Shown here one piece after another: positions 2,141 through 24,974 of a stretch of DNA of 32,000 nt. Made by a program: the position numbers and the translations under genes. The stretch is taken from positions 1,230,001 to 1,262,000 of the forward strand of contig NC_009776.1 of the NCBI RefSeq assembly GCF_000017945.1, written 5' to 3'. Source of the DNA: Ignicoccus hospitalis KIN4/I. Its GTDB lineage: Archaea; Thermoproteota; Thermoprotei_A; Sulfolobales; Ignicoccaceae. Numbering within the stretch: position 1 is the stretch's first letter; each line of letters begins with the position of its first letter. The notes beneath the pieces were generated by a model. The model saw nothing but the letters and a program-made list of their open reading frames with translations, was not told the origin of the DNA and did not search any database.

Positions 2141-2554
2141 GTGTGCGACGCGATGTTGGGCAGGCTCGCTAGGTACCTCAGGATTATGGGCTATTCCACA
2201 AAATATAGCGTAGAGGAAGACGAGAAGATACTCGAAGGGCTCGGGGACTGTATACTGCTCACCAGAGATAAGGGCCTCTGCTCCAAGGCCGGGCCCAACT
2301 GCGTTTACATCTCGTCGGGAGACCTAAAGGAGCAGCTCGCCCAGCTGAGGCTCGAGATAGGGTTGCCCCTAAGGCTCCCGGAGAGGCCGTTGAGGTGTTC
2401 CGTCTGCAACGGCCCCTTGGAGTACGTGGGCAAAGTCGGGGACAGAGAGCTCTGGAGGTGCAAGGTTTGCGGTCAGCCCTACTGGATGGGGAGTCACATA
2501 AAAAGGATTAAGAGGACGCTGGAAGAGGTAAACAAAACCTTGGGGTTTACTTAG
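2141..2554 (+). CDS. Mut7-C RNase domain (DUF82, PIN-like) protein with C-terminal zinc ribbon
   Basis: The N-terminus CDAMLGRLARYLRIMGY matches the family signature (D-x-ML-G-x-LAR-x-LR-x-x-GYD). The C-terminal pairs CSVC and CKVC form a zinc ribbon. GTG start. It overlaps the convergent napH end by 8 nt. Confidence 0.7.
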   Translation: MCDAMLGRLARYLRIMGYSTKYSVEEDEKILEGLGDCILLTRDKGLCSKAGPNCVYISSGDLKEQLAQLRLEIGLPLRLPERPLRCSVCNGPLEYVGKVGDRELWRCKVCGQPYWMGSHIKRIKRTLEEVNKTLGFT

Positions 2555-3518
2555 TCCTCTTTAATCTAAAGCCCAACGAGATCACGTTGGTAGGGCAGAC
2601 CTCGACGCAGCGCCCGCACCTAAAGCAGCGGTAATCGGTCACGTCCTTGTTCTTTAAAACGTAGTCGCCCATAACGTCTATACCCATAGGGCAGACCATG
2701 CTACAGAGCCTACACTTGGTGCACCTACTCACGTCGTTTATCTTTATTTTAAACGGGTCATACTTATTCATGACGAAGCCGTAGAGGGCGCCGATGGGGC
2801 ACACGAACCTGCACCAAGCCCTCTTTATACCGAAGACCTTCTCGGCCACTACGTTGACTATCAAGGCGAAGACTACGAAGGCTCCGTACGCCAAGGCGGT
2901 TCCTGCCGCGGCCCCCGGCACGTTAGCTATGACGCCGAGCACCGCGCTGCCTAGCTTGGACGCGTTCGAAGTGGGAGATATCGTAGTGTAGAAGGGGTAG
3001 CCCAAAGCCCAAGAGAGCAGGACGTATGCTATTAAGGCGATTATCGGTACCGCCTTCTCTGCTTTGGTAGGAGTGTGGAAGGTGGAGTGCCTCGGCTGGT
3101 TAGGCAAGTTCAGCTTCTTCTCGAAGATGCTGAAGAGGAGGTCCATCGGGCACACCCAGCCACAGAAGAACCTGCCCAGAACGGAGTACAGCGCGACGAC
3201 CACCAGCACGGCGGTTAAGCTCTCTATCGTGGCGTAGTGGGTGGCCGCGAGCATTTCTAAGAACGCTATTGGATCCAACATTGGGATGTATATTTCGTTT
3301 ACCTCCATTCCCGGCAAGGCAATGGTCTGGTTGAGTACTATATCTATTGGCCTGCTCGAGGCCAAGCTCCCGTTGAAGAGCACTCCTCCGGTGAACAGCT
3401 GTATAGAGAACATTATTAGGATGAACAACTGGAGGGAGCGTCTTAGAAGGGTCCACTTCCCTCTAGGCGGCCTGCCCCTCAGCCACTTCTTCACCTTACC
3501 GACGGCCTTCAACCTCAC
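2547..3518 (-). CDS. napH: NapH-type membrane-bound iron-sulfur quinol dehydrogenase subunit
   Basis: Two C-x3-CP motifs follow transmembrane segments (FCGWVCPMDLL and WCRFVCPIGALYG). Two C-terminal ferredoxin motifs follow (CTKCRLCSMVCPMG and CFRCGRCVEVCPTN). The N-terminal LLRRSLQLFILIMF... and PMLDPIAFLEMLA...ALYSVLGRFFCGWVCP line up with bacterial NapH as I recall it. The GTG start overlaps the napG stop (GTGA, 3515-3518). Confidence 0.8.
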   Translation of the reverse strand: MRLKAVGKVKKWLRGRPPRGKWTLLRRSLQLFILIMFSIQLFTGGVLFNGSLASSRPIDIVLNQTIALPGMEVNEIYIPMLDPIAFLEMLAATHYATIESLTAVLVVVALYSVLGRFFCGWVCPMDLLFSIFEKKLNLPNQPRHSTFHTPTKAEKAVPIIALIAYVLLSWALGYPFYTTISPTSNASKLGSAVLGVIANVPGAAAGTALAYGAFVVFALIVNVVAEKVFGIKRAWCRFVCPIGALYGFVMNKYDPFKIKINDVSRCTKCRLCSMVCPMGIDVMGDYVLKNKDVTDYRCFRCGRCVEVCPTNVISLGFRLKRTK

Positions 3519-4492
3519 TCACCTAGGCCGCTGCTCTCCAAGGGCTTCGCTTTGCGGACGTTAAGTAGGTAGTCCGCGTTGAGGGACGACCTTATAGTAG
3601 CGGTGAAGGGGTCCGTCTCCTCCGCTTTCTTTATTAACTCTAAGTACTCATCATAGGTCATTCCGGTGTTCTTGAAGTTCTTGATCCTCTTCTCGTACTC
3701 CTCCTTCGGTAGGACGTGAATTGCCGCTCCGGGGACCGGGCAAGCCCTTACGCAAAGCCCGCAGCCGTTGCATTCCTCACCTTTCACTCGGGTGTGAACC
3801 CCCCACTCGTTGAAGTGGAAGTCGAACACTTCCGAGCCTCTGGGGCACGCGGAGGCACAGCTCTTGCAGTCGCCGCTGTTCCACGCCCAACACAAGTCCG
3901 GGTCTATGAGGGCAACGCCCATCTTAACCTCGGAGGGCTTAACTTCTTTGAGGGCGTCCGTCGGGCAGACCTCTGTACAGCGCATACACAGCTCGCAAGG
4001 GTAGTTCATTACGTCATATACCACCGGCGTGCCGACGTACTTAAGACCCTTTTCCAAGCCCCTCAACTTCAAAGTGTGGTAGTTCATGTGAGTACAAGCG
4101 GTATAACAGAGCCCGCACCTTACGCACTTCGAATAGAAGTTCTCGTCCGCCCCGGGGGGCAACAGCTCGTACTTGTCGTACTTGTACTCCTTCGTGTAGG
4201 TCTGACACTTGTCGGGTAGAAGCGGGTTCTTTACTAAGTACTTCCCATTTACCTCTTCTACTAAGTTTAGCGCCTTGTAATAGTTTATCTTCTCTTGGCT
4301 CTCGAGCACCCACGGTTCGTAGTAATAACCGTAGCACTCGTCATTATGTTCTTCATTCTCCTTTGCTTCGAGCTCCTTTAGCACCTTTTCCGCTATGGGG
4401 GCAGTCTTAGTTATAGCCGGTATGGCCGCGCTGGAGATCAACAGCCCTTTAATGAGGTTGCGTCTCGAGGGGTTCAAAGCCTCGCGACCCAC
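3515..4492 (-). CDS. napG: NapG-type periplasmic ferredoxin (four 4Fe-4S motifs) with twin-arginine signal
   Basis: Tat motif SRRNLIKGLLISSAAIPA. Four cluster motifs: LLPPGADENFYSKCVRCGLCYTAC, PCELCMRCTEVCPTDAL, LCWAWNSGDCKSCASACP and CNGCGLCVRACPVPGAAIHVLP. Each is collinear with E. coli NapG as I recall it ([22 protein letters not shown]..., [20 protein letters not shown], ...AAIKVLP). GTG start. Confidence 0.85.
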   Translation of the reverse strand: MGREALNPSRRNLIKGLLISSAAIPAITKTAPIAEKVLKELEAKENEEHNDECYGYYYEPWVLESQEKINYYKALNLVEEVNGKYLVKNPLLPDKCQTYTKEYKYDKYELLPPGADENFYSKCVRCGLCYTACTHMNYHTLKLRGLEKGLKYVGTPVVYDVMNYPCELCMRCTEVCPTDALKEVKPSEVKMGVALIDPDLCWAWNSGDCKSCASACPRGSEVFDFHFNEWGVHTRVKGEECNGCGLCVRACPVPGAAIHVLPKEEYEKRIKNFKNTGMTYDEYLELIKKAEETDPFTATIRSSLNADYLLNVRKAKPLESSGLGE

Positions 4493-4593
4493 TGCGTTCC
4501 GCTGAAGCGGAACCTAATAACGAGGACATTTACATTGCGAGGGCGATACGAAAAGATGGGTAGAGTAGGGACGCAAGCCCTCATTGAGGAGAT

Positions 4594-4605
4594 AAAAAAT
4601 AAAAA
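4594..4605 (-). terminator. T-rich tract (TTTTTATTTTTT on the minus strand) 7 nt after the napA stop; possible archaeal oligo-T terminator or pause site
   Basis: The plus strand reads aaaaaataaaaa at 4594-4605. Archaeal termination commonly uses oligo-T runs. The same A/T box could instead act as a TATA element for napGH, about 100 nt upstream of the napG GTG. Confidence 0.3.
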
Positions 4606-4611
4606 CGTGTG

Positions 4612-7600
4612 TTAGGCTAGCTCGGTCTTACAGTCCGGACAGTAGTCCTTTAGGTTTATGTCGTACTTGGGAGCCGAAGTCTGCACCGGCGCGGTGACGG
4701 ACTCCGGAATCTCGTCGGGCCTGGCCTTCCTTATCTTAGCAGCACAAGTCTTGAAGTCCGGCTGGAAGAAGTACGGCTGGACGTCGTAGTTGTCCAGAGT
4801 TATTGCGTTGGCTAGCTTGTTGGGGTCGAACCACGGTATGAAGACGTAGTCTTTCCTCGGACCTCCCAGGCCGGTCTTGGGGTTGAGTACCCTTGCCGGG
4901 ACTACGATCTTCCCTCTCGGGCTCTCCACCACGACCCAATCGCCAGACTTTATACCCAGCTCTTCAGCGAGTTCGTAGTTTATCTCGACGTAAGCGGTGG
5001 GCTTGACGCGGTAGAGCTCCGGCACCCTACAAGTCATAGTGCACGTGTGCCAGTGCTCTATCACCCTTCCGGTGGTCGCCACCAGCGGGTACTCGTTGCT
5101 GTCCCTCACGGATATTATGTTACCGTCCTTCGTCCTGTACCTCAAGTTGAAGCCGGGCGCCTCGGCCGGGGCCAACGCTATCTGGAATATCGCGGCGACG
5201 TCGCCCTTGTAGGCCTTCAGTGCCTCGCCCCAGCTCATCTCCTCCAGCACTTGCAAGCCTCTCTCGGGGTCGCCGTCAGCTGGCTCAGCTTCGTACTTCT
5301 TTACTATCCTAAACGGACCCTTCGGCTCGGAGAACACGCTTATCTTGCCCTTGAAAGCCGCGTCGGCGTCCAACTTCTCTTCGGTTATTAGCACAGTCTT
5401 GTTTATGGTAATCTTTCCGGTCTTGTGGTCTATGTTCACTGGCAACCACGGCCTGGTCCACATGGTGACCCTTCCGGTGGGCTTCGGATAGATGACGTTG
5501 TACCAGTCCTCCGGCAAGTTGTTCTTCCTCTTGTACTCCTTGTCGTCTATCTCCTCGACTATGTTCTTCAATATCCACTTGAGCAACGGCGGGTTGTGCC
5601 ACAACTTTCCGAGCCACTTCTTCTTGTGTATCGGGTGGAGCTTCGTATCGTCGTAGTTCATTATTACTTCGTGTATCTTCTCCGGATCGTCCAAGTCCTT
5701 AATCTTGTTATACAAGTCCTTAATGACCTCTGGATCTGGCATTAACGCGTCGTACGGATAGACATACCTCATAGCGCTCTCGTAAGTGTCATACCTCTTC
5801 TTCACGCTGGGGTTGTAAGCGTAAGTCCACGGCCACGGCCAGCGGAAGGCGCGCTGCTGCTCCCAAGTCCTCTTACGGAAGGTCTCTCTGTCGGGGTAGC
5901 TGAAGTCGTAGTAGGTGTTCTTCGCAAGCGCCCTGATATCGTAGTTCCATATCCTATCGAGCACCTTCATGTGCCACTTCAAGTCGTGGCTCTTCTTCAC
6001 TACGTAGTCTACCCAGCTGGTCCCGGCTTTCTTCGCCGCCTCGTCGACTCTCTCGGGGAAGAACACGCTCACTATGCCCTTCGGTACCAGGCCTTCGTCC
6101 TCCCACGCCTTGCCTAACATGGCGAAGATTATGTGGTCACCAACCGCCTCCCCTGGCGGCTTGACGAGGTAGCGTGCGATGGAGTACCTCCTCTCAGTAC
6201 AGCCGTAGAAGAACTCCTTCTCGCCGTAGGCGGCCGCGGGCAATATCAAGTCAGCCAAGTCGGTGGTCCTAGTGGGGTAGATGTCGCTGACCACCACGAA
6301 GGGGAACGCCGGGTCGTCGTCGTGGGGCTTGGCCATGCCTAGCCTGAACTTGTAGAGGTTGGGCAAGCTCTGGCCGGGGTTCGTCTCGGCTATCCATACA
6401 ACCTTTATCTGGCCGGCGTTGACCCTGCGGAACAGCTCTATCACGTGCGGGCCGGGGACGGGGTGTACGTAGATCTTCTTCATGGTGTCTTGTATCTCGG
6501 CCTCGGAGTAACCTAAGTCCTTCATGAGCTCCGCGGTCACGTTCCTCCAGATGTTCTCCACTTCCTCCCTCGCAGCCTTGTTGGCTATTAGCCTACCGTA
6601 AGGGAGCACGTGGGCGAGGCCTCCTTGGTCCCTTATGCCGCCACACGCGTTAGGCTGGCCGGTCAGGCTGAGCGTGCCGCTACCATACTTGCCTATCTTG
6701 CCAGCTAAGGCCAAGAAGTCTATTATTGCGTTTATGCTGTGAACGCCTTGGATCTTCTGGTTTATACCCATCGTCCAGAGGACTAGCGGCCTGCCCTCCG
6801 CCAACCACTTCGCTGCGAGCTCCATGGCCTTCACGGGCTCTATTTCGACGAAGGGGTCGTTACCGCTCAAGTTGACTTGGGTGGGCTCCAGCTCGCCGCT
6901 CGCTATGAGCTTCTCCGCCAAGCTCCTCTTAATGAGTGGCTTCTCGTCGCCGAAGAGCAACTTCACCATTACTTCCGGCTTATACATTTCGAAGAACTTG
7001 ACGAAGAGCGCGAAGCCCTTCCACCAGTCCTTCTCGACCTCGTCCTCGTTCTTGTACTCCTTCCCTACGCTGGGGTACATGGCGTAGTTGGAGTTAATGC
7101 TAGCGGTGGTACCCATGTCCCATACTTTGTTTGCCTCGCCTAGGTTGTTGTACTTGGTATTGTAATCCTTCAACGCCCAAGTCTTCTGGGACTGCTTGAT
7201 TACGGCAAAGTCAGCATGCCTCTTGAGCCAGTCTATGTCTATGTACTCAGGGTTCTCGCACTCTACCTTACCGGCTTCGGGGTCGGCCTTACACTTGGCT
7301 AAGCGGAAGAGCAGTATGTGTATCAACGTGTTCATGAAAGCGACGTCCATTGACCACCTAAGTGGTAGCCAGAGGTCGCTGACTACTCCGGTCCTAGTCT
7401 TCCTGGGATCCGCGAGGATTATCTTGCCCTTGTCGCCTAGCTTCTCCTTAACCCTAGCTATCCTACCGAAGACTATTGGGTGCGCCTCGGAAGTGTTGGT
7501 ACCTATTAAGAGGAAGGTGTCCGCGTGAACGCCGGTGTTAGGCTCTGGGACGTCTATCAAGTCGTAGCTGGTTTCCGGTTCGTCGGCGCCAAAGCTAGTT

Positions 7601-8391
7601 ATGTAGCCACCGACCGCGGAGACCATACACATCCTCGGGTTTCCGTCTAGGTTGTTGGTGTGGATACCGCCCTTGGTTAGCTTGTTTATGACGTAACTCT
7701 CCTCAGTCCCTAACTGGCCGCTCCCGTAGTAGGCGAAGCTGTGTGGACCGTACTTCTGTAGGGCATACTTCATTATTGCAGTGAAGAACTTGACTGCGGT
7801 ATCCCAGTCCACTTCGACGTAATTGCCTCCGTAGACCCAGTCGTCTATGGGTATCTTCGCGTCGACGTTCTTGTTGACTTGCTTGTTCTTGACCCTCGGG
7901 GCCAGAGGTATTTCTTCCGGCTTGATAGGCGGCCTGTTGAGGTCTGGGATTATCCAGTCCTTGTTAACCATTGGCTTCCTGAGCCTCCTCTTCCAAGCGT
8001 TGGGCTCAGCCCAACCCATGGCCTTGTGTATGTAGAAGGCCTTGGTACACATGGCACCGTGGTTGACCGGGTAACCGGGCATTCCGAGGATTCCGTAGAC
8101 CTTACCGTAGCTGCTAAGGCCGGTCTCGGGGTCGACGATGGCCATCGCTTGGACTCCACAACCGGTCCCACAGAATCGGCACGGACCTATGGGAACGATG
8201 GTCATCTTTCTAGGACCTTGCATGTTTAGGACAGAGTTTATCGACGCCTTGACTTCGCCCTCGAGCTCCTTGTTGATGACCTTCGCCGCCTTGCTCGCGG
8301 TTGCCATAGCGGCTCCTAGGGCTAGGGCCTTTAGTAAGCTCCTTCTGGTAGAACTCGGCAAGGCAGACACTGCACCCGATACTAGCCTCAT
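4612..8391 (-). CDS. napA: NapA-type periplasmic nitrate reductase catalytic subunit (Mo-bisPGD, Tat-exported), unusually long at 1259 aa
   Basis: Start placed at ATG 8391-8389 (MRLVSGAVSALPSSTRRSLLKALALGAAMATASKAAKV, a twin-arginine signal). The 8661 start of the longest ORF would overlap the upstream gene. Hallmarks are the N-terminal 4Fe-4S motif PCRFCGTGCGV...GAMCTKAF, the Mo-ligand region NNLDGNPRMCMVSAVGG (Cys codon 7627-7629), SLTGQPNACGGIRDQGGLAHVLP, TTGRVIEHWHTCTMTCRVPEL and IPWFDPNKLANAITLD...DFKTCAAKI. All are collinear with bacterial NapA as I recall it. Confidence 0.85.
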   Translation of the reverse strand: MRLVSGAVSALPSSTRRSLLKALALGAAMATASKAAKVINKELEGEVKASINSVLNMQGPRKMTIVPIGPCRFCGTGCGVQAMAIVDPETGLSSYGKVYGILGMPGYPVNHGAMCTKAFYIHKAMGWAEPNAWKRRLRKPMVNKDWIIPDLNRPPIKPEEIPLAPRVKNKQVNKNVDAKIPIDDWVYGGNYVEVDWDTAVKFFTAIMKYALQKYGPHSFAYYGSGQLGTEESYVINKLTKGGIHTNNLDGNPRMCMVSAVGGYITSFGADEPETSYDLIDVPEPNTGVHADTFLLIGTNTSEAHPIVFGRIARVKEKLGDKGKIILADPRKTRTGVVSDLWLPLRWSMDVAFMNTLIHILLFRLAKCKADPEAGKVECENPEYIDIDWLKRHADFAVIKQSQKTWALKDYNTKYNNLGEANKVWDMGTTASINSNYAMYPSVGKEYKNEDEVEKDWWKGFALFVKFFEMYKPEVMVKLLFGDEKPLIKRSLAEKLIASGELEPTQVNLSGNDPFVEIEPVKAMELAAKWLAEGRPLVLWTMGINQKIQGVHSINAIIDFLALAGKIGKYGSGTLSLTGQPNACGGIRDQGGLAHVLPYGRLIANKAAREEVENIWRNVTAELMKDLGYSEAEIQDTMKKIYVHPVPGPHVIELFRRVNAGQIKVVWIAETNPGQSLPNLYKFRLGMAKPHDDDPAFPFVVVSDIYPTRTTDLADLILPAAAYGEKEFFYGCTERRYSIARYLVKPPGEAVGDHIIFAMLGKAWEDEGLVPKGIVSVFFPERVDEAAKKAGTSWVDYVVKKSHDLKWHMKVLDRIWNYDIRALAKNTYYDFSYPDRETFRKRTWEQQRAFRWPWPWTYAYNPSVKKRYDTYESAMRYVYPYDALMPDPEVIKDLYNKIKDLDDPEKIHEVIMNYDDTKLHPIHKKKWLGKLWHNPPLLKWILKNIVEEIDDKEYKRKNNLPEDWYNVIYPKPTGRVTMWTRPWLPVNIDHKTGKITINKTVLITEEKLDADAAFKGKISVFSEPKGPFRIVKKYEAEPADGDPERGLQVLEEMSWGEALKAYKGDVAAIFQIALAPAEAPGFNLRYRTKDGNIISVRDSNEYPLVATTGRVIEHWHTCTMTCRVPELYRVKPTAYVEINYELAEELGIKSGDWVVVESPRGKIVVPARVLNPKTGLGGPRKDYVFIPWFDPNKLANAITLDNYDVQPYFFQPDFKTCAAKIRKARPDEIPESVTAPVQTSAPKYDINLKDYCPDCKTELA

Positions 8392-8521
8392 TCCAGGAGC
8401 TAATATACGCTCTCTGTATATGGGAGGGCCGAAAGTCGGGTTGTGCTCCCTCGTCTTGTCAGTACATGCTTCAAAACTTGGGACGCATTGTTTTTGAAAT
8501 AAAATAGAGGTCCCTCGAACT

Positions 8522-8884
8522 TCAGAGGGAACGCAACAGATCCTCGAAATACTTGCGAGCTTCATCAGATAAAGATATCTCGCCCCTTTCCAACATCTCT
8601 TCCAACTCTCTCCTCGCGTCGTCGTCCGCCAAGAACCCCCATACCACGAAGGCCTTCGCAACGCCCTCGATCGTTTCGCCGGTCTTTATTACCCTCTCTA
8701 AGCTCTTTACGTCTGGCGCCTCTACATAGAATATCAAATAAGCTGGATTATCCGTCTCGTATATCTCAAAACCTAACTCCCTCAACTGGGAGGCGATCCT
8801 CGCGTACTCCTCTGTGCCCCTATAGTTAGGGGCGACTAAGAAGAAGCCCGTCGCAAAGGGCACTAGACTCGCACCGCTGAACAC
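8522..8884 (-). CDS. napD: NapD-like Tat-substrate chaperone candidate with a C-terminal acidic helical extension
   Basis: Sits directly upstream of napA on the same strand. IASQLRELGFEIYETDNPAYLIFYVEAPDVKSLERVIKTGETIEGVAKAFVVW follows the pattern I recall for E. coli NapD (ISTQLNAFPGCEVAVSDAPSGQLIVVVEAEDSETLIQTIESVRNVEGVLAVSLVY). This is the beta-alpha-beta-beta-alpha-beta ferredoxin fold. GTG start. The assignment rests on pattern and position only. Confidence 0.45.
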   Translation of the reverse strand: MFSGASLVPFATGFFLVAPNYRGTEEYARIASQLRELGFEIYETDNPAYLIFYVEAPDVKSLERVIKTGETIEGVAKAFVVWGFLADDDARRELEEMLERGEISLSDEARKYFEDLLRSL

Positions 8885-8932
8885 TTATCCAAAATTCATT
8901 AAATAGTGACCGCCCGGCGCTCGGGGCTCAAT

Positions 8933-9574
8933 ATGAAGCTGCTGAAGTACAAGACTTACCCAGAGGTTGAACTCGAAATAGAGGACTTCGAAGGACAGCC
9001 CTACTTGTTCTACGAGGAGTGTAGCAGCGGCATAAGGTTGGAGGCCGCACTGGAGGATGAGCTAGTAGAAGAAGCTAAGAACGCCTTGGAAGGCGAGCTG
9101 CCGGACTCCTTGCTGGCCTTATTGGGTATAGAGGTTTTCGGAGAGGACCTCGAGGCTCTTTGCGACGAACTTAGGGCGAGGGGGTTCCAGTGCGAGTTCA
9201 AGCGTAAGGAGGACGAGGAGTACTGTGAGAGCATAACCCTCAAGCTCTCCTCACCTAGCTCCAAGCTAGTAAAAGTAGTAGTGGAAAACGGTAAAATAAA
9301 GGTTTATCCCGCCAACGCCCGGAAGGGCTACATAGCCTTCAAGTGGGACGGCCGTAAGGCCACTTTGGAGGCCGCGGTCCCCTCTGCAATCCTCTCAGCC
9401 CTCGAAGACAAGGACGATAAAATCAAAGCTTTGATCGCTGCGTTGGTGCCGGAGCTCAGGGACGTAGGGGTGGAGGACCCAATTGAAGTCCTAAAGGCGC
9501 TAGAAGACTCCGGAAGAGATTATAAATTTTGTGTCGAGCGGAACGAACGTTTAGTAAGTTGGAGGCTCGAATAG
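8933..9574 (+). CDS. hypothetical acidic protein
   Basis: Clear ORF (MKLLKYKTYPEVELEIEDFEGQPYLFYEE...) with normal codon texture and no motif I recognise. ATG 8933 is preferred over GTG 8906 because the A/T-rich box aaaattcattaaata (8891-8905) lies about 30-40 nt upstream. Divergent from the napD-like gene. Confidence 0.5.
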   Translation: MKLLKYKTYPEVELEIEDFEGQPYLFYEECSSGIRLEAALEDELVEEAKNALEGELPDSLLALLGIEVFGEDLEALCDELRARGFQCEFKRKEDEEYCESITLKLSSPSSKLVKVVVENGKIKVYPANARKGYIAFKWDGRKATLEAAVPSAILSALEDKDDKIKALIAALVPELRDVGVEDPIEVLKALEDSGRDYKFCVERNERLVSWRLE

Positions 9575-9650: not shown

Positions 9651-11516
9651 TTGACCGTAGTCCTACAGAAGACGGACGTTCCTCTGCAAATAGAGAAGCC
9701 GGCGACCAGAGAGCTCGTGGACAAGCTATGGGAGGTCGCCGGGGAGGCGAAGTACATCCTAGTAGAGGCGAGGGACGTAGAGGAGGCGCGCAAGGCCTTG
9801 TACCAGTGGCTCAGCGAAATGGAAACCAAGTACATGTACGGCGAAGTGGAAGTGCACCCGCTGATAAGGGCTCAAGCGCTTGAAGCCATAAGGGTATTCA
9901 AGAACGTCATTGCCCCTCTGAACGAGAAGCTGACTGGTTATTCCGCCTTGAAGTACTTGTACAAACTGGCGAGGTATGAGGGCATTGAAGAAGTCGACGA
10001 GGGCTTCGTCCTGGAATTCATTCACTTATTCAAGGCGATTTATGGAAAGCCGGACATATACCCCGCAAAGTACGCGGAAGGTCTAGGGTATTTCGACTTC
10101 TCCAAGTTGAAGGGGCGCCAAGCCGGCATAGCCCGGAGCGAATACTTGGATAGGTTGGCCTCACGGGTCTGGGAGTACATAAAGCGTTACCCCAGCGGCC
10201 TCGACCCGGAGGTAATAGAGAAGAGAAAGGAGAACCGAAGGAAGATATTGGAAGTTTTGGGAGGAAGCGAAGACGACTGGAAGGACTACAAGTGGCACTA
10301 CAAGAACGCGCTAAGGGGTAAGAGGGCAATAAAGGTGTTGAAAGAGCTCGTAAAGGGGTTGAGTGAGGAAGACTGGAAGGCGCTGGAGGACGCCGTCAAG
10401 TACAACGTCCCCTTCGGGATAACTCCGTACTACTTACACCTCTTCGACTTTGATGAGGGCTGGAAGCACGACTACGCGGTGAGGAGGCAAGTGCTACCGC
10501 CTCTCCACTACGTTAAGGAGATGGTTGCTCACCTGGACGAGAGGGAGTACTACTTCGATTTCATGGGAGAGCACGACACCAGCCCGCATCCGTTGATAAC
10601 TAGGAGGTACCCCATGGTAGCGATACTAAAGGCCGCCCACACGTGTCCCCAGATCTGCGTCTACTGTCAGAGGAACTGGGAGATAATGACTGCTATGGAC
10701 AAAGAGGCCATCCCCACCAGGATGACTATAGATGAAGCCATAGACTGGTTCGCCGAACACCCCAATATAATAGACGTTCTGGTGACCGGCGGCGACCCCT
10801 TCATACTAAGGGACGAAGACATAGAACATATAGTGAAGAGGCTGAGCGAGTTGGACCACGTCAAGATGATAAGGTTCGGCACCAGAACTCCAGTTACCGT
10901 TCCCATGAGGATAACGCCGGAGTTCGCCGAAATGCTCGGCTCTTACATCGAGCCCGGAAAGAGGAATATCCACGTGGTAACTCACGTAGAACACGCCTAT
11001 GAGGTAACTCCGGAGATGGCCGAGGCCGTGACCAACTTGCGCAAGAACAAGATATACGTCTATAACCAGCAAGTGTTCACCTTCTGGAACAGCAGGCGGT
11101 TCGAGACCTCTGCCCTTAGGATAGCGCTGAAGAGCATAGGCATCGACCCGTACTACACGTTCTACCCCAAAGGGAAGTGGGAGACGAAGGACTACCTAGT
11201 GCCCGTGGCCAGGATACTCCAAGAGAGGAAGGAAGAGGCGAGGGTCCTACCGGGCACCTTTAGGACGGAAGAGCCCGTCTTCAACGTCCCCAGGCTGGGC
11301 AAGAACCACTTGAGGGCGTGGCAAGACCACGAGCTGATAATGATAAGGCCCGACGGCAGGAGGGTGTACTTGTGGCACCCGTGGGAGAAGAACATCCAGT
11401 TGGTAGCGCCGTACATCTACACCGATATAGTGTCTATTAGGATGTACTTAGACAAGCTGAAGGAAGTCTTCGGAGAGGACTTGGAGGACTACAAGAGCAT
11501 ATGGTACTACTACTAA
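9651..11516 (+). CDS. KamA-family radical SAM protein (lysine 2,3-aminomutase-like), long form with a roughly 330-aa N-terminal region
   Basis: Radical-SAM cluster motif CPQICVYCQRNWE (10644-10667), followed by VLVTGGDPFIL, IRFGTRTPV and VYNQQV, which are typical of the KamA/EpmB family. TTG start, with the A/T box catattag at 9611-9618 about 35 nt upstream. Confidence 0.7.
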   Translation: MTVVLQKTDVPLQIEKPATRELVDKLWEVAGEAKYILVEARDVEEARKALYQWLSEMETKYMYGEVEVHPLIRAQALEAIRVFKNVIAPLNEKLTGYSALKYLYKLARYEGIEEVDEGFVLEFIHLFKAIYGKPDIYPAKYAEGLGYFDFSKLKGRQAGIARSEYLDRLASRVWEYIKRYPSGLDPEVIEKRKENRRKILEVLGGSEDDWKDYKWHYKNALRGKRAIKVLKELVKGLSEEDWKALEDAVKYNVPFGITPYYLHLFDFDEGWKHDYAVRRQVLPPLHYVKEMVAHLDEREYYFDFMGEHDTSPHPLITRRYPMVAILKAAHTCPQICVYCQRNWEIMTAMDKEAIPTRMTIDEAIDWFAEHPNIIDVLVTGGDPFILRDEDIEHIVKRLSELDHVKMIRFGTRTPVTVPMRITPEFAEMLGSYIEPGKRNIHVVTHVEHAYEVTPEMAEAVTNLRKNKIYVYNQQVFTFWNSRRFETSALRIALKSIGIDPYYTFYPKGKWETKDYLVPVARILQERKEEARVLPGTFRTEEPVFNVPRLGKNHLRAWQDHELIMIRPDGRRVYLWHPWEKNIQLVAPYIYTDIVSIRMYLDKLKEVFGEDLEDYKSIWYYY

Positions 11517-11741: not shown

Positions 11742-13964
11742 TTAAGGCCCGAGGAAGTCCTCTGCCTTGGGTGGTTCTGGGGGTAGGCCTTTCCTCTCCC
11801 TGATCTTCCTTATGAGCTCCGGTAGGAGCTGGTCGGGCACTGGCTCCCACCCGTAGAACTCGGTGCCCCAGAACGCCCTACCGGCGGTTACGCTCCTCAG
11901 CTCCATGGGGAGTTCGAAGCTCTCAGCTATGGGTACCGCCGCCACTATTCTGGCTTGCCCGCCCATGTCGATGACCTCCAATATCTTGCCTCTGTGCTTA
12001 GTTATGACGCCCGTCACCGCGCCTATGTACTCGTTAGGAACCCTTATGTCTAGCTTCTGCCACGGCTCCAGCAAGGTCGGGCTGTCGGTCAGCATGCTTG
12101 CGTAAACGGCGTTCCTAACTGCCGGGTATAGCTGGGCGGGACCTCTGTGCGCGGGGTCCTCGTGTATCACGGCATCCCACAGTATCACTTTGACGCCCCT
12201 TACCGGCTCCTTCGCTAAGGGCCCTTCCTTCATGGCGAGCCTCCAGCCGGCCAGTATGGTGTCCTTCACCTCCCTTAAGTGCTGGACGCCCACGGTCTTG
12301 TCAATGAATATGTTGAAGTTCTCCTCGTCGACGGCCCATATCCTCCTAGCGGTGTCGGCGTCCCAGTTGACCTTGTCCCTAAGGACCTTCGCCCTCTCCC
12401 TCGGGTCTTGGTCGTCAGTTATCTCGCCCTTCTGTATCATCTCAATTACTTCCTTCTCTAGCGGTTCCACGGTGATGTACAGCTTGTTGTGTTTGTTGGG
12501 GCTCTTGCCCTCTACCTTCTCTCCGGGCTTCCTCACGGTCTCACGGTAGGTTATCACGGGCGGGCTTACCTTGACCTCAAGGCCGTAAACCTCCTTGAGC
12601 TGTGTCAGCGCAATCTCTATGTGTAGCATGCCCATGCCGCTGAGCAAGTACTCGCCAGTCTCTTGGTTTATGGTCACCTTGAGGTTGGGGTCCTCTATGC
12701 TTAACGTCCTCAACGCCTCGATAAGCTTGGGCAAGTCCCTGGGGTTCTTGGGCTCTATCGCCACGGTCACCACGGGCTCGCTGACGTAGTGGAGCTGCTC
12801 GAAGGGCGCTGCTTGGTCCTTGTAGTTTATGTCGACTAGGGTCTCGCCGGCCCTGGCGTCGTCCAGACCGAGCATGGCAACTATGTTGCCCGCCGTCACG
12901 TAGTCCACTATTTCCCTGTCGGGACCCATGTAAATCGAAACTTGCAGTATCTTGCCCGGCTTTTGGGCGTTGACCAACCAGACCTCCTTGCCCGCGGTCG
13001 CGGTACCGGCCCAGACTCTGCCGGTGGCGACGAGCCTCTTAGTGTGGGGGTCTAGCCTCATGTCGTTTATGAATACTACCAAGGGGCCCTCGGGGTCGCA
13101 GTTGAGCATGGCCTTGCCTAGCTCGCTGTTTATGTCGCCCTTCCAGAGCCTGGGCACCCTGTACTTCTGGGCCTCTCTGGGGTTGGGCACCCAGCGGACC
13201 ACCATGTCTAGCAAGGTCTCGTGTAAGGGGGCCTTGTGGAAGAGCTCCTCTATAGCGTCCTTGCTTCCCTTTGCGTAGGCCTCTACTATGTCACTGAACT
13301 TTATTCCCTTTTCTTGGGCCATAGGTATCGTAATGCCCCACTTGTCCTTGGCACTGCCCAAGGCCACATGGCCCTTGGCGGGGTCCAACAACCACTTCTT
13401 GGCTATCTCTGGGTCGGGCGCGAAAGTCAATATGCGCTCGTTAACGTCCTTAATGATTTGGACTATCCTCTGTTGGATCTCTTGGGGGCTGAGCTTGAGC
13501 TCCTTGATGAGGCGGTCGACCTTGTTGATGAACAGAAGCGGCCTTACCAGCTCTTCTAGAGCTTGCCTCAAGACGGTCTCGGTCTGAGTCATTACCCCTT
13601 CTACAGCATCGACCACCAGTATGGCTCCGTCTAGTACCCTCAAGCTCCTGGTGACCTTACCGCTGAAGTCGACGTGGCCAGGGGTGTCTATCAAGTTTAT
13701 TACATAGGGCTTACCCTTGTACTCGTGGTACAAGCTTACGTTAGCCGCCTTTACGGTTATTCCCCTCTGCTGCTCAACGTCCAAGTAGTCTAGCGCCCTC
13801 GCCTCTCCCGCCAGTTTAGGGCTGAGTATCCCCGCGTGGGCCAAAAGCGCGTCGCTCGTCGTGGTCTTGCCGTGGTCCACGTGGGCTATGATGCCTATGT
13901 TCCTCACTTGCTCTACGTTTCTCATTATCTTCAAAATGTCTTCTACATGTTTGTACTTTGGCAT
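11742..13964 (-). CDS. fusA: translation elongation factor 2 (aEF-2)
   Basis: G-domain motifs [17 protein letters not shown] and NKVDR. Diphthamide-site motif [13 protein letters not shown]. Normal length of 740 aa, so no intein. Confidence 0.97.
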
Positions 13965-20760: not shown

Positions 20761-21969
20761 TTGCCCGGCTTGAAGAAGCTACACCCCGTCCCCTACGTGA
20801 TTGACGAAATAAGCAAGAGGTTGGGCCCCGCACCGCTCGAGAGGATCAAGACAGTAGAATCAGTGGGCATGTTCTCGGGCTCAGACGTGAGGGCCTCACA
20901 AGACGTCCCTCCAGAAGACAAGGCCGTCTTGGACGGGTTCGCGGTGAACAGCGAATTCGTAGAGGACTGCAGCGAGACGTCGCCGTGTAAGTTGAAGTTG
21001 TGTGGGGAGGCTGAGGGCGGCTGTGCGGTCCCGGTCAACACGGGTAACCCCTTGCCGCCGGGAGCTGACACGGTAGTGCCCATCGAGGCTTGTAAGGTCG
21101 AGGACGGCGAGGTATACGTCTTCCGCCCCTTCCCGCCGGGCAACGCGATAGCGAAGAGGGGGGAGGACCTAAAGTCTGGGGACACAATAATAACGAAAGG
21201 AACGTACCTCAGGCCTTGGCACGTGGCCGCCTTGTTATCTCAAGGGGTAGTCGAGGTAGACGTGGTAGCGCCCAAAATAGCCTTAGCGGCCACGGGTTCG
21301 GAATTGGTAGAGCCGTGGGAGGAGAGGGAAGGCGTGAAGAACACCACGGCGTGGCTGGCCTCCTCTTTCTTTAAAGAGAGGATGGGCATCAAAGTGGATT
21401 ACTTCGGCATAATTGAAGACGACAAAGAAGCTATAAGAGAGTTCTTCGAGAAGAAGGTGAAGGAGGGCTACGACATTGTAATGACCACCGGGGGGACCTC
21501 CGTCGGTCGCGTCGACTTCACCTCGTCCGCGCTGAAAGAGGTCTCTGAGTTCAGCCTTCACGGCGTCGCCCTCACCCCGGGCAGGCCCCTCGCCGTGGGG
21601 GTGAGCGAGGGCGGCAAGCTGTTGGTAGCCCTTTCCGGCTACCCCGTGGCCGCGCTCAGCGAGCTTGAGGTCGTCGTGTGGAACATCCTAAAGAGGGCTT
21701 GGGGTCTCAAGGAGCCCCCGAGGCCCAAGGTTAAGGCGAAGCTGGCTAGGAGGCTGCCGGTCCAACCCAACATGGTCCACGTCTACAGGGTAGTCGTGAG
21801 GAAGGTCGGTGAGGAGTACGTCGTAGAGCCCTTGAGGCTCACGGGTTCGGGTATTCTCTCGTCACTACTCAAGGGAAACGGGATCTTGGTGGCGGGTCTC
21901 AAGGGCGAGACCGGGTACGACGTGGGCGCCGAAGTCGAGGTAGAGTTGATCTCCGAGGTGTTAGAGTGA
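20761..21969 (+). CDS. moeA: molybdopterin molybdenumtransferase MoeA
   Basis: LDGFAV, VNTGNPLPPGADTVVPIE, MTTGGTSVGRVDF and LTPGRPL are MoeA/gephyrin-E signatures. The TTG start follows GGAAGGAGAGG. Confidence 0.85.
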   Translation: MPGLKKLHPVPYVIDEISKRLGPAPLERIKTVESVGMFSGSDVRASQDVPPEDKAVLDGFAVNSEFVEDCSETSPCKLKLCGEAEGGCAVPVNTGNPLPPGADTVVPIEACKVEDGEVYVFRPFPPGNAIAKRGEDLKSGDTIITKGTYLRPWHVAALLSQGVVEVDVVAPKIALAATGSELVEPWEEREGVKNTTAWLASSFFKERMGIKVDYFGIIEDDKEAIREFFEKKVKEGYDIVMTTGGTSVGRVDFTSSALKEVSEFSLHGVALTPGRPLAVGVSEGGKLLVALSGYPVAALSELEVVVWNILKRAWGLKEPPRPKVKAKLARRLPVQPNMVHVYRVVVRKVGEEYVVEPLRLTGSGILSSLLKGNGILVAGLKGETGYDVGAEVEVELISEVLE

Positions 21970-21981
21970 GTGGTCAACTCG

Positions 21982-22098
21982 TGGCGCCGGGGGCGGGATT
22001 CGAACCCGCGCGCCCCTGATTGGGGCAGTGGGTCTCTCGGTCGCTTCGGGCGCTGGAGGTCTCGAGCCCACCCCCTTGGGCCGCTCGGGCACCCCGGC
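21982..22098 (-). tRNA. tRNA-Ser (anticodon CGA) with a 27-nt intron after position 37, CCA encoded
   Basis: The minus strand reads GCCGGGGTGCCCGAGCGGCCCAAGGGGGTGGGCTCGAG[ACCTCCAGCGCCCGAAGCGACCGAGAG]ACCCACTGCCCCAATCAGGGGCGCGCGGGTTCGAATCCCGCCCCCGGCGCCA. The anticodon CGA is at 22064-22062. The spliced loop is CTCGAGA between stem GTGGG/CCCAC. Confidence 0.88.
22034..22060 (-). other. tRNA intron in a bulge-helix-bulge-like context
   Basis: A central 4-bp helix CUCG/CGAG includes the anticodon. It is flanked by two 3-nt AGA bulges on opposite strands, next to the anticodon stem. Symmetric cuts after AG in each bulge give a canonical 7-nt loop. Confidence 0.7.
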
Positions 22099-22988: not shown

Positions 22989-24974
22989 TCACTTCCAACG
23001 GGAGGCCCTATACTCTTGTAAGAGTTTTTCGAGGTCTTCTACTTGCATCTGCCTCATAGACTTCAGTTTCTCCATTCTCTCGTTCCACTCGTCTTTAAGG
23101 TCAATGGGAAGGACGGCATACCTACCGTAGACCTCGCCCGACGCCGTTATTACGGGGATCCCCCTATCCTCTAATTCTTTCTTAGTCTTCTCATTTATCT
23201 CAGAGGCAAATAACATTATATTATTCTCTAATATCTTTTCTATGAAGTCTTCGTTTAGCGCTTCCACCTTGTTCGCTAAGATCGCCCTCGTGGGTAGCTC
23301 CTCTATTTCGTGTTCCGGGAACTTGGAAGTAAAAGTAATGTCGTCCAAGTACAAGGCTACGAACGCCTCACCTCTCTCGACCTTTAACGCCGCCTCCCCG
23401 GCCTTCTCCAACAACGAGCTCAGTTCCTCGTTAATCCTCTGGAGCTCCTCAACCTTACGCGTCAGCTGGGAGTAACTCTCCTTTATCGAGGATACCTTCC
23501 TCTCCACTTCGTCCTCTATCTGTCTCCTAATTAGGTTCAGTTCCAAGTTTAGCTTCTCAATTGTAGCTTCTAACTCCTTAATCTTTAGCTTTAGGCTAAC
23601 GTTCTCGGCCTCTAGGTACGCTAGTTTTAAGGCGCTCTTCAGGCCGCCGCCCTCGAGGTCGTTCCTCTTAGGTTGTTGAGCTGTAGGGTAGACGTCTTCT
23701 TCGCCCCCCTCTTCTTTTATAAGTTCACCTATCTCTTCTTCAACCACGTCCGCTATCGAACGTCCTTCTTTCAAGACGCTGAGGCGCACTCTATCTCTAT
23801 CGACGTCGAGTCCTATTCTCTCCAAGTAGTTCTCTACTTTTTCTATCTTACCCTTTATCGCATTGAGGGCCTTGTGCGCCGCCGCCAACGCGTCCCTTTG
23901 GTGGCTGTCCTCCACGTTGACCCCTCTAGCCCGGTACTCCTCCGCTATCCTCTCCTTCTCCTTGACGCTTAAGGAGTTCTTAGGATAATATAACTCCGCG
24001 TTGAGCGTCGCGGCGAGCTTCTTCGCGGTGTGGGAGGGGGGACTAGTATCAGTAGCAATAATTATAGGTAGTCCGAACTTGTTTATCAGAGATACTAGCT
24101 CGCCCCTATCTGCATTCTTGAACGAGCCTAAGAAGAGGACCTCGCCTTCTACGTTCAATATAGCCAGTCCGGTCTTTATGCCGGGGTCAATGCCTACGAC
24201 GAGTAGCTCTTTTGTCCTTTGTTCTTCGTCTTCGAACATAAATTTGCGCGTGACGACCGGTCTAACCTTTACGCGCACCGCGCTGCTGCTGACCGGCTTA
24301 ACGAGCCCCTCTAGGGACTTTCGCGGGGCGTAGACGATAAAGGTTGCAGAATCTATAGAGCCGTCACTCTTCCTTATGAAGAGGTCGTAGTCAAGTCCCT
24401 CCTTTTCCAAGGTTGACTTTATTTCGTTCACTGTCTCGATTACCGCGTTCCTAGTGGCCCTTACAAAGCGATTCATACTGCTCCCGCCGGCTCTGGGAGT
24501 TCGACCCTTCGTCACAATGATCTTGGTCTTCTCTTCGAAAACTTTGACCTTTGTGCCTACGCCCTTGAGAGCCAAAAAGGCCAGTGCCAGCGCCGTTTCC
24601 CGGGGCGTGAGCTTCTCCGAGGTGAAACGCATTCCGTGAACCTTCAAGAGTTCCCTTAGGTCGACGAACTCCCCGTCCACCCGAGTTACTTGTACCACTT
24701 CAGTCTCTGGGGGAATCAAGTTCAAGAACTTGATCAATTCCCTCTGGTTCTCACCTAGTTCCGTTAAGTTGTCGACGGCAATCAGTTTCGGCCTGAACTC
24801 CCAGAGTATGCGTATGAGCTTCTTAATGTCAACCCTCTTATCTATGATTACTTTCCCGTCGCAGTCGACTAACACCAAGTGGAACTTTCCCTTAATCCCC
24901 GGCGGAGAGCCCGGCTCTAGGTCAACCGCTACCACTGGGCAATTCTTTGAGCCTTCTGACCACCTCATCAACAT
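22989..24974 (-). CDS. conserved archaeal DUF460/COG2433-type protein (RNase H-fold RuvC/YqgF-like domains plus coiled coil)
   Basis: LLVVGIDPGIKTGLAILNVEGEVLFLGSF...LPIIIATDTSPPSHTAKKLAA is the DUF460 core. A second, N-terminal RNase-H-like start is VVAVDLEPGSPPG...LIAVDN. A central heptad region follows (LKLKIKELEATIEKLNLELNLIRRQIEDE). The start overlaps the rio2 end. Confidence 0.65.
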   Translation of the reverse strand: MLMRWSEGSKNCPVVAVDLEPGSPPGIKGKFHLVLVDCDGKVIIDKRVDIKKLIRILWEFRPKLIAVDNLTELGENQRELIKFLNLIPPETEVVQVTRVDGEFVDLRELLKVHGMRFTSEKLTPRETALALAFLALKGVGTKVKVFEEKTKIIVTKGRTPRAGGSSMNRFVRATRNAVIETVNEIKSTLEKEGLDYDLFIRKSDGSIDSATFIVYAPRKSLEGLVKPVSSSAVRVKVRPVVTRKFMFEDEEQRTKELLVVGIDPGIKTGLAILNVEGEVLFLGSFKNADRGELVSLINKFGLPIIIATDTSPPSHTAKKLAATLNAELYYPKNSLSVKEKERIAEEYRARGVNVEDSHQRDALAAAHKALNAIKGKIEKVENYLERIGLDVDRDRVRLSVLKEGRSIADVVEEEIGELIKEEGGEEDVYPTAQQPKRNDLEGGGLKSALKLAYLEAENVSLKLKIKELEATIEKLNLELNLIRRQIEDEVERKVSSIKESYSQLTRKVEELQRINEELSSLLEKAGEAALKVERGEAFVALYLDDITFTSKFPEHEIEELPTRAILANKVEALNEDFIEKILENNIMLFASEINEKTKKELEDRGIPVITASGEVYGRYAVLPIDLKDEWNERMEKLKSMRQMQVEDLEKLLQEYRASRWK

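Follow-up and report, generated by a model that had tools for sequence, protein, structure and literature searches.

A Nap-type gene cluster encoding a giant NapA in the archaeon Ignicoccus hospitalis

The stretch of DNA analysed here is a window of 32,000 nucleotides (nt) from the chromosome of Ignicoccus hospitalis KIN4/I (contig NC_009776.1, positions 1,230,001 to 1,262,000; positions below are counted from the first letter of the window), and its subject is a cluster of genes for a bacterial-type periplasmic nitrate reductase (Nap). The cluster, at 2547-8884, comprises four open reading frames (ORFs), napH, napG, napA and a napD-like gene (Igni_1377 to Igni_1380), all lying co-directionally on the minus strand (Table 1). 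An earlier account made from the DNA letters alone, referred to below as the sequence-only reading, had placed four such genes here, and all four ORFs are indeed present. Every motif that it quoted from NapA, NapG and NapH, including the twin-arginine (Tat) sequences TRRSLLK and SRRNLIK, was located as well. It had further proposed that napG and napH are translationally coupled through the sequence GTGA. The napG stop does overlap the GTG start of napH by 4 nt, and the two genes are tightly coupled under the GenBank call too, in which napH starts at a TTG two codons downstream.

Annotations of the napA start disagree (8307-8391). Upstream of the ATG at 8391 the open frame overlaps napD, and this extension is not conserved; the conserved part begins at the ATG itself, with the sequence MRLVSGAVSALPSSTRRSLLK. 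The GenBank protein (ABU82555), of 1249 amino acids (aa), retains the twin-arginine motif, whereas in RefSeq (WP_238374089; 1231 aa) translation begins at Met29, 3' of the RR pair, so that TRRSLLK, and with it the Tat signal, would be deleted.

The catalytic subunit sits firmly within Nap, not among the assimilatory nitrate reductases (Nas) or the formate dehydrogenases (Fdh), and its active site is of the nitrate type. It belongs to a clade of very long NapAs, called the long clade in what follows. The RR pair is invariant across 10 aligned long-clade sequences, and the cluster cysteines C71, C74, C78 and C115 are invariant in 23. At the molybdenum (Mo) site, Cys255 followed by Met256 is the Nap/Nas-type arrangement and aligns with Cys140-Met141 of Desulfovibrio desulfuricans NapA, and Met541 corresponds to Met308 of that enzyme. 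Cys255, Met256, Met541 and Arg587 are kept in 23/23 long-clade sequences, bar one Ile at position 256. In the same alignment columns, formate dehydrogenases have Cys or selenocysteine (Sec) followed by His at the Mo-ligand site, and are also without the Arg.

Profile and structure searches gave NapA as the best match throughout. Pfam matches were Molybdop_Fe4S4, Molybdopterin and Molydop_binding, and the best NCBIfam profile was NapA (362 bits), ahead of Fdh-alpha (279) and NasC (223). Against the curated profiles NF010055 and TIGR01706 the protein scored 362 and 355 bits, which does not reach their cut-offs of 904 and 930, and the profile match is broken into three stretches by insertions. 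Since it falls below the equivalog cut-off, the protein is a divergent member of the Nap clade and not a canonical equivalog. In a sequence search of the PDB, D. desulfuricans NapA was the best match (386 bits), with other NapAs at 255-276 bits and Fdh at 189 at most. An AlphaFold2 model of residues 61-1259 (predicted local distance difference test, pLDDT, 91.3; predicted template-modelling score, pTM, 0.93) was placed by Foldseek closest to the D. desulfuricans structures 2v45/2nap, with a template-modelling (TM) score, normalised to the target, of 0.90 (E = 2e-51); NapAB-type NapAs ranked next, and then Fdh. The protein thus has the four-domain Mo-bisPGD fold, nearest to that of NapAs with solved structures.

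A neighbour-joining (NJ) tree of 54 sequences (741 well-occupied columns, 100 bootstraps) was built with E. coli NapA, FdhF, FdnG and DmsA, the NapAs of Sulfuricurvum and Chelatococcus, four Nas proteins and two further FdhF sequences as references. Nap was monophyletic at 100 %, with Nas and Fdh outside; branching inside a non-Nap clade, which the sequence-only reading had named as a result that would refute it, was not seen. The long NapAs formed a clade at 100 %, sister to the ~775-aa monomeric-type NapAs at 85 %. An assimilatory Nas was also considered as an identity for this protein and was ruled out by the Tat signal, the NapG, NapH and NapD partners and the tree.

NapG carries its Tat motif SRRNLIK at residue 9, three canonical CxxCxxCxxxC motifs (residues 123, 166 and 241) and one variant, C-x8-C-x2-C-x3-CP (~200-217). 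Its best NCBIfam profile was NapG NF007012 (101 bits; cut-off 269), and it shares 37 % identity with E. coli NapG across 176 aa (E = 2e-24), relative to which it has an N-terminal extension of ~100 aa. NapH contains two CxxxCP motifs (119, 236), two ferredoxin motifs (266, 298) and, by hydropathy, four hydrophobic segments positioned as in the NapH family. Its best NCBIfam profile was NapH NF007013 (140 bits; cut-off 234), and it aligns collinearly with E. coli NapH over its full length (28 % identity over 321 aa, E = 2e-29). The Pfam NapD profile gave 17.2 bits for Igni_1380 (E = 0.005), short of its cut-off of 28, and all five archaeal NapD orthologues matched it weakly, so that a profile-profile comparison was needed to confirm NapD. 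In hhalign, the five archaeal NapD-like proteins matched ten NapDs with 95.9 % probability (E = 5.8e-9), and BLASTP against E. coli NapD gave 33 % identity over 61 aa (E = 1e-6). Igni_1380 combines a divergent NapD chaperone core with ~40 aa of helical extension at its C-terminus. The description of the locus as a Nap-type NapD/A/G/H module is supported by the best profiles, the similarity to E. coli and the hhalign result. As a profile check it succeeded in part: NapA, NapG and NapH were the best matches of their respective proteins, but all scores lie below the curated cut-offs, the Pfam NapD score (17 against 28 bits) included.

At 1259 aa, Igni_1379 has both the length (at least 1100 aa) and the insertions of the long clade. 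Relative to ~775-aa NapAs it holds ~457 extra residues in ~15 insertion segments, ~345 of them common to the bacterial long clade and ~114 specific to archaea. The insertions are confidently folded within the full AlphaFold2 model. When the largest insertion-rich region (residues 860-1102) was modelled alone (pLDDT 79, pTM 0.48), it had no structural match in the PDB (best E about 1), and among 1.8 billion representatives it was carried solely by the protein's own 50 % cluster. On these models the insertions are predicted to decorate the NapA core and to form no recognisable domain.

Homologues of NapA fall into three tiers: archaeal proteins of 1220-1290 aa, from Ignicoccus, Hyperthermus, Pyrolobus and Pyrodictium as well as from metagenomes, with 60-87 % identity; bacterial ones of ~1110 aa, 37-40 % identical over the full length; and ordinary NapAs. 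Among the matches listed in a genome scan, bacterial long NapAs came from Thermodesulfovibrionales, Dissulfurispiraceae, Caldimicrobium, Desulfurivibrio, Desulfobulbaceae, Kryptonia and Ignavibacteriales. A 2025 NapA phylogeny and a 2026 review describe size classes only up to ~975 aa and leave archaea unmentioned; the 1100-1260-aa NapAs are a distinct giant clade not covered by recent structural and phylogenetic reviews of Nap. In the NJ tree the archaeal and bacterial long NapAs are reciprocally monophyletic (100 % each), and the archaeal branch splits Ignicoccus from Pyrodictiaceae roughly as the species tree does. The position of the long clade within bacterial Naps makes a single old transfer from a bacterium to an archaeon the simplest history, and it is the branching order from which we infer this direction. 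The module would have reached the ancestor of Ignicoccus and Pyrodictiaceae once, been remodelled there and then been inherited vertically, which agrees with the suggestion of the sequence-only reading that horizontal acquisition was followed by remodelling. The composition profile showed no anomaly in G+C content (GC) across the nap locus, and this flat profile gives no sign of recent transfer.

A small peculiarity of the I. hospitalis protein lies at its very end: the C-terminal tail closes with DYCPDCKTELA, and the CPxC pair in it is found only in the I. hospitalis subclade, not in other Ignicoccus, Pyrodictiaceae or bacterial homologues.

The module had been described as lacking a cytochrome c partner, and its electron chain as haem-free. 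For the locus itself the first statement stands. Reading-frame stretches of 60 codons or more anywhere in the 32-kb window yielded no CxxCH motif, the I. pacificus locus has none for 8 kb to each side, and neither NapB nor NapC was matched in any archaeal long-clade locus. A published genome-wide survey of CxxCH proteins in I. hospitalis likewise contains no NapB and no protein of the NapC/NrfH type (Kletzin 2015).

When gene neighbourhoods were compared in 83 loci, however, a different candidate emerged. The bacterial long-clade loci have a near-fixed gene order, namely an octahaem cytochrome gene (seven CxxCH and one CxxCK), a gene of ~165 aa for a Reeler-type protein, napA, napG, napH and napD. 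The Reeler-type product is a small secreted protein with a single CxxCH that matches the Reeler domain PF02014. Its gene lies directly upstream of long napA in 37/38 bacterial loci with enough upstream DNA, often overlapping it by 4 nt, and was seen in none of 33 other Nap loci, many of which have small four-haem proteins near napA instead. In Nitrospirota and Thermodesulfobacteriota the octahaem gene matches Pfam Cytochrom_C552; that of Pyrolobus is hydroxylamine oxidoreductase (HAO)-like. The napD directly after napH in the bacterial loci was found with a small hidden Markov model (HMM), single-sequence phmmer having given none. Judged by linkage, the octahaem, Reeler-type and nap genes are a candidate compact set for converting nitrate to ammonium.

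In archaea the Reeler-type protein is 224-245 aa long, with a C-terminal membrane anchor in several cases. Its gene adjoins napA in a Hyperthermus metagenome-assembled genome, lies 1.3 kb upstream of napA in Pyrolobus fumarii (beside a gene for an 859-aa HAO-like multihaem protein) and 2.3 kb upstream in H. butylicus, and is three genes from NapA in Pyrodictium delaneyi (Pyrde_1151). Next to I. hospitalis napA, and anywhere else in the window, no Reeler-type gene is present. Kletzin et al. (2015), however, modelled two monohaem cytochromes of this organism, Igni_0759 and Igni_1052, on the reelin-N fold and gave Hbut_1376 and Pyrfu_1333 as their homologues. We took both sequences from the supplement of that paper and checked homology by BLASTP: Igni_0759 shows 37 % identity (E = 1e-33) with a Reeler-type protein encoded beside napA in a bacterium, and Igni_1052 shows 52 % (E = 3e-48) with the one from Hyperthermus. 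Given the clade-wide linkage and the presence of these two homologues elsewhere in the genome, the absence of a cytochrome c partner holds for the locus but probably not beyond it. A Nap system without any such partner is probably not what I. hospitalis possesses, and the haem-free reading does not sit with a Reeler-type gene at 37/38 bacterial loci and in Pyrodictiaceae, nor with two I. hospitalis homologues, one of them expressed. A full-text search found no literature linking Reeler with nitrate reductase and cytochrome.

One bacterial locus departs from this order. In a Bacteroidota genome (L033) a 123-aa protein with four CxxCH motifs replaces the Reeler-type gene upstream of long napA, apparently a natural exchange of the presumed redox partner.

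Published proteomes supply the expression evidence. Cells of I. hospitalis supplied with H2/S0 and no nitrate yielded 793/924 spectra for NapA, 73/63 for NapG, 20/14 for NapH and 0 for NapD; in the same proteome Igni_0759 gave 102/99. The Nap complex is made constitutively in I. hospitalis, as it is in P. delaneyi. NapG was also enriched in purified Nanoarchaeum preparations, together with I. hospitalis hydrogenase, sulfur reductase and ATPase subunits, from which we speculate that it may sit in the outer cellular membrane. An octahaem cytochrome of I. hospitalis, IhOCC (Igni_0955; PDB 4QO5), has been described as a nitrite reductase.

Published data on relatives also bear on function. The long NapA of Desulfurivibrio dismutans (RS11645; 3336 nt, 1111 aa) rises ~65-fold on nitrate (log2 ratio -6.0), and its NapG and NapH, like the neighbouring 'choice-of-anchor V' (Reeler-type) protein, were seen solely in the nitrate condition; the dissimilatory reduction of nitrate to ammonium (DNRA) in Desulfurivibrio is carried out with NapAGHD and an octahaem nitrite reductase. 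P. delaneyi grows on nitrate, and in strain Su06 nitrate reductase activity was measured and Pyrde_1154 was detected constitutively; a partial P. delaneyi NapA sequence is 73 % identical to Igni_1379. In Pyrolobus fumarii, reported to use nitrate as electron acceptor, a Reeler-type and an 8-haem cytochrome are encoded next to napAGHD. Orthologues are also present in Hyperthermus butylicus, I. islandicus and I. pacificus. For Igni_1379 itself, nitrate reductase activity is putative, with indirect support from D. dismutans and P. delaneyi.

Comparison with known systems shows what is shared and what is peculiar. Desulfurivibrio NapAGHD (D. dismutans P0N66_RS11650-11630; D. alkaliphilus) represents the bacterial half of the giant-NapA clade. 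Its NapA of ~1111 aa has most of the insertions, 37-40 % identity over the full length and the same active-site residues; NapG, NapH and NapD are present and NapB and NapC are not, and these organisms also live on sulfur and hydrogen. In Desulfurivibrio, however, the Reeler-type gene lies directly upstream of napA, and the wider clade usually has an octahaem gene beside it, whereas the I. hospitalis locus lacks both. Its napD is upstream rather than downstream, its NapA has ~114 more inserted residues, and its NapG and NapD are extended. Unlike the Desulfurivibrio system, which is nitrate-induced and serves growth by DNRA, I. hospitalis Nap is expressed without nitrate.

D. desulfuricans ATCC 27774 NapA (2NAP/2V45; operon napCMADGH) is the best match in both sequence and structure. 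Its Cys140, Met141, Met308 and Arg354 are all kept, there is no NapB, and NapG, NapH and NapD are encoded in the operon, but this NapA has 723-755 aa as against 1259 aa here. The D. desulfuricans operon also includes the tetrahaem proteins NapC and NapM. The clusters of the Pyrodictiaceae (P. delaneyi Pyrde_1154 and Pdsh_02770-02795; P. fumarii; H. butylicus) are orthologous, with NapA at 68-73 % identity, and have NapG, NapH and NapD-like genes and the archaeal insertions in common with I. hospitalis. Their Reeler-type genes (Pyrde_1151, Pyrfu_1333, Hbut_1376) lie within a few kb of napA, in contrast to the dispersed genes of I. hospitalis, and an HAO-like octahaem gene is found between ~2 kb (Pyrolobus) and ~10 kb (Hyperthermus) from napA. 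P. delaneyi and P. fumarii use nitrate, whereas I. hospitalis is not known to respire it. The NapAGHBFLD systems of Wolinella succinogenes and other Campylobacterota (for example on Sulfuricurvum pSULKU01) share the gene order A-G-H, and in them NapGH is the quinol dehydrogenase in place of NapC. Theirs is, however, a heterodimeric NapA of ~925 aa from a different Nap subclade, accompanied by dihaem NapB, NapF and NapL. E. coli NapFDAGHBC shows 33 % (NapD), ~30 % (NapA), 37 % (NapG) and 28 % (NapH) identity but needs NapB and NapC, and its 828-aa NapA is of the heterodimeric type. Unlike the classical NapAB/NapC systems, neither dihaem NapB nor tetrahaem NapC/NapM was found in I. hospitalis, by the window scan and the published CxxCH survey.

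These results are consistent with a model in which Igni_1377-1380 encode a quinol-dependent, Tat-exported nitrate reductase with Mo-bis(pyranopterin guanine dinucleotide) (Mo-bisPGD) cofactor, of the monomeric-NapA lineage. NapH, with its four membrane helices, would oxidise quinol; electrons would pass from the NapH Fe-S clusters to the exported polyferredoxin NapG, on to the [4Fe-4S] cluster of NapA and then to the Mo centre, where nitrate would be turned into nitrite outside the cytoplasmic membrane. NapD would act as chaperone of the NapA Tat signal. The Reeler-type monohaem cytochrome c (Igni_0759/Igni_1052) is likely to be an additional redox partner of the giant NapA, so that the chain would probably not be wholly haem-free, and nitrite would probably be handed to IhOCC. 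The outcome might be a low-flux route from nitrate to ammonium, or a redox-balancing or detoxifying one, without growth on nitrate alone. Gene identities, Nap phylogeny, active site and fold come from the present analysis, and expression from published proteomes. We favour this model as a whole, mechanism, cytochrome step and transfer included, with moderate rather than strong confidence.

Several points weigh against it. All four Nap proteins score far below the curated cut-offs, the tree is an NJ tree on 741 columns rather than a maximum-likelihood one, and ~36 % of NapA consists of insertions. The role given to the Reeler-type cytochrome is drawn from gene linkage and from co-expression in another organism. 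H. butylicus, I. islandicus and I. pacificus are not known as nitrate reducers. Since the complex is made without nitrate both in I. hospitalis and in P. delaneyi, there is no nitrate-linked regulation. Finally, I. hospitalis does not use nitrate as its only electron acceptor, and its cultures showed no nitrate respiration (Podar 2008).

With these points in mind, we weighed other explanations. The nearest is a wholly haem-free chain, running from quinol through NapH and NapG directly to NapA with no cytochrome anywhere. NapG is regarded as able to pass electrons towards NapA in some bacteria. The lack of CxxCH in the window and within 8 kb of the I. pacificus locus, the survey without NapB or NapC/NrfH and the grouping of NapA with the monomeric class, which has no NapB, all fit such a chain. 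We nevertheless consider it unlikely, if by no means negligible, because a Reeler-type gene accompanies 37/38 bacterial giant-NapA loci, often translationally coupled to napA, and recurs near napA in Pyrolobus, Hyperthermus and P. delaneyi; moreover I. hospitalis encodes two homologues, one of which is expressed, and that of D. dismutans appears solely under nitrate respiration. A further possibility is that the Ignicoccus enzyme acts on another substrate, such as chlorate, selenate or some other oxyanion, its likeness to Nap reflecting ancestry only. I. hospitalis does not grow on nitrate, and several relatives with the gene are known only as sulfur-dependent. The ~457 inserted residues could reshape the substrate funnel, Campylobacter jejuni NapA also reduces chlorate and perchlorate, and every profile score is below its equivalog cut-off. 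Yet a different substrate seems distinctly improbable: the active-site residues specific for nitrate do not vary within the clade, superposition of the NapA core gives TM 0.90, nitrate induces the sister enzyme in bacteria, and nitrate is reduced by the closest cultured archaeal relatives that carry the gene.

Less probable still is that I. hospitalis goes on producing the complex as an evolutionary leftover that serves no selected function. The organism is not known to respire nitrate, and its locus is no longer linked, as those of Pyrolobus and Hyperthermus are, to cytochrome genes and a conserved neighbour gene of ~320 aa. Against this, all four genes are intact in a streamlined genome of 1.3 Mb, the catalytic residues are invariant and NapA is abundant in the proteome; and since identity across Ignicoccus and Pyrodictiaceae is 68-87 % with a species-like tree, purifying selection is indicated. 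A membrane-bound formate dehydrogenase or CO2 reductase, the alternative left open by Podar 2008, can hardly be credited. Fdh profiles and structures are indeed the second-best matches, and similarity to both types was seen in that paper; but Met, not the catalytic His, follows the Mo ligand, GQPNACGGIRD stands in place of the Fdh-type GQNNVQG, the protein lies inside Nap with 100 % support, its partners are NapG, NapH and NapD and not FdhB, FdhC and FdhE, and no such activity was detected in I. hospitalis extracts (Podar 2008). We therefore reject this identity on active-site residues, phylogeny and partner genes.

The favoured model of an exported, quinol-dependent nitrate reductase can be taken further, in a form that we put forward tentatively and regard as rather doubtful. 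The 1100-1260-aa NapAs might be an unrecognised fourth architectural class of Nap, whose insertions dock a Reeler-fold cytochrome that replaces NapB, feeding an octahaem nitrite reductase; the I. hospitalis set (Igni_1377-1380, Igni_0759/1052 and Igni_0955/1359) would then provide the intermembrane compartment with a cryptic route from nitrate to ammonium. If true, an organism held for 25 years to be a strict sulfur respirer would have such a route.

The cluster cannot count as a new finding. In GenBank, ABU82553-ABU82556 (Igni_1377-1380) have been annotated since 2007 as 'putative nitrate reductase, subunit H/G/A/D', and Podar et al. (2008) discussed the cluster as a bacterial-type periplasmic nitrate reductase-like operon gained by lateral transfer. 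[quoted passage not shown] Reports on P. delaneyi followed in 2017 and 2021: an orthologous NapADFGH cluster was described in the nitrate-grown strain Hulk, and the enzyme of Su06, Pyrde_1154, was called 'Nap-like'. A 2026 paper reported the orthologue in a Pyrodictiaceae metagenome-assembled genome as napA. Given the 2007 annotation and the 2008 genome paper, the I. hospitalis Nap cluster is a rediscovery; it was already known, and by itself it leaves the picture of archaeal nitrate reduction unchanged. What is added here is that the ambiguity between Nap and Fdh is resolved, the giant clade is recognised, the Reeler linkage is shown and a testable model is offered. The earlier papers leave a puzzle, in that an obligate H2/sulfur respirer with a minimal genome abundantly makes a Nap that it cannot grow with, and the nitrate-type active site, the membership of the giant clade, the nitrate-induced member in Desulfurivibrio and the Reeler-type and octahaem homologues in I. 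hospitalis together suggest cryptic nitrate ammonification or redox balancing as a hypothesis that can be tested.

Table 1. Features of the 32-kb window, followed by features of comparison loci (positions preceded by the locus handle).
Feature	Position	Strand	Details
napH (Igni_1377)	2547-3518	-	323 aa; ORF list; GenBank ABU82553, 99-100 % identical
napG (Igni_1378)	3515-4492	-	325 aa; ORF list
napA-napG intergenic	4493-4611	-	T-run TTTTTATTTTTT immediately after napA stop
napA (Igni_1379)	4612-8391	-	1259 aa from ATG 8391; open frame extends to 8661
NapA C-terminal tail	4615-4650	-	
Largest insertion-rich region	5086-5814	-	NapA residues 860-1102; insertion map
TGRVIEHWHT			NapA residue 1107; motif scan
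SLTGQPNACG(GIRD)	6640-6669	-	NapA residue 575; holds Arg587, equivalent to Arg354 of D. desulfuricans NapA
PRMCMVSA	7615-7638	-	NapA residue 252; Mo-ligand Cys255, then Met256
[4Fe-4S] motif CRFCGTGCGV	8152-8181	-	from NapA residue 71
Tat motif TRRSLLK	8329-8349	-	NapA residues 15-21
napD-like (Igni_1380)	8522-8884	-	120 aa; ORF list
Igni_1381	8906-9574	+	222-aa hypothetical protein
Igni_1382	9651-11516	+	KamA-family protein
EF-2 (elongation factor 2)	11742-13964		
moeA	20761-21969		
tRNA	21985-22098	-	114 nt; Rfam 31.4 bits; missed by ARAGORN
Rio2	24922-25809		
Reeler-type gene, examples from loci L007-L047	L013:7421-7903; L029:7414-7917; L042:5761-6261		
Reeler-type gene, further loci	L001:6781-7509; L093:8037-8720; L094:6960-7664		
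Octahaem gene beside Reeler-type gene	L013:5696-7360; L093:5219-7798		equivalents of the L013 gene in ~27 bacterial loci
Four-haem gene upstream of long napA	L033:7484-7855		Bacteroidota
napA-side ORF of ~300-330 aa	L093:8887-9846; L094:8876-9841; L037:6990-7880	-	
napA-side ORF of ~300-330 aa	L002:6404-7348; L003:2977-3978		

Signals between the genes were judged by eye from the sequence. T-rich runs follow both the napA stop and the napD stop (the latter within 8392-8521), and an AT-rich, TATA-like box lies ~30 nt ahead of the napA ATG. The run after napA could act as an archaeal terminator, in which case napGH would form its own transcription unit. The arrangement suggests that napD, napA and napGH do not form a single operon but have a transcript each, possibly leaderless.

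The surroundings are archaeal, as had been claimed. EF-2 and the KamA-family protein match I. hospitalis KIN4/I proteins exactly, moeA and Rio2 are present, and the tRNA is, from its length, probably an intron-containing archaeal one. Two genes next to the cluster were noted in passing. Igni_1381, divergent from napD, has no Pfam match and gave 25/23 spectra in the published proteome, and Igni_1382, a radical S-adenosylmethionine protein resembling lysine 2,3-aminomutase, gave 63 and 13 spectra in the two proteome samples.

A last observation concerns napA in other archaea. A conserved ORF of ~300-330 aa with no Pfam match adjoins napA in Pyrolobus, Hyperthermus, I. pacificus and Pyrodictiaceae metagenome-assembled genomes; the I. 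hospitalis window contains no equivalent. At three of the loci that have it (L094, L002 and L003), a protein of ~335 aa with Fe-S motifs is encoded alongside.

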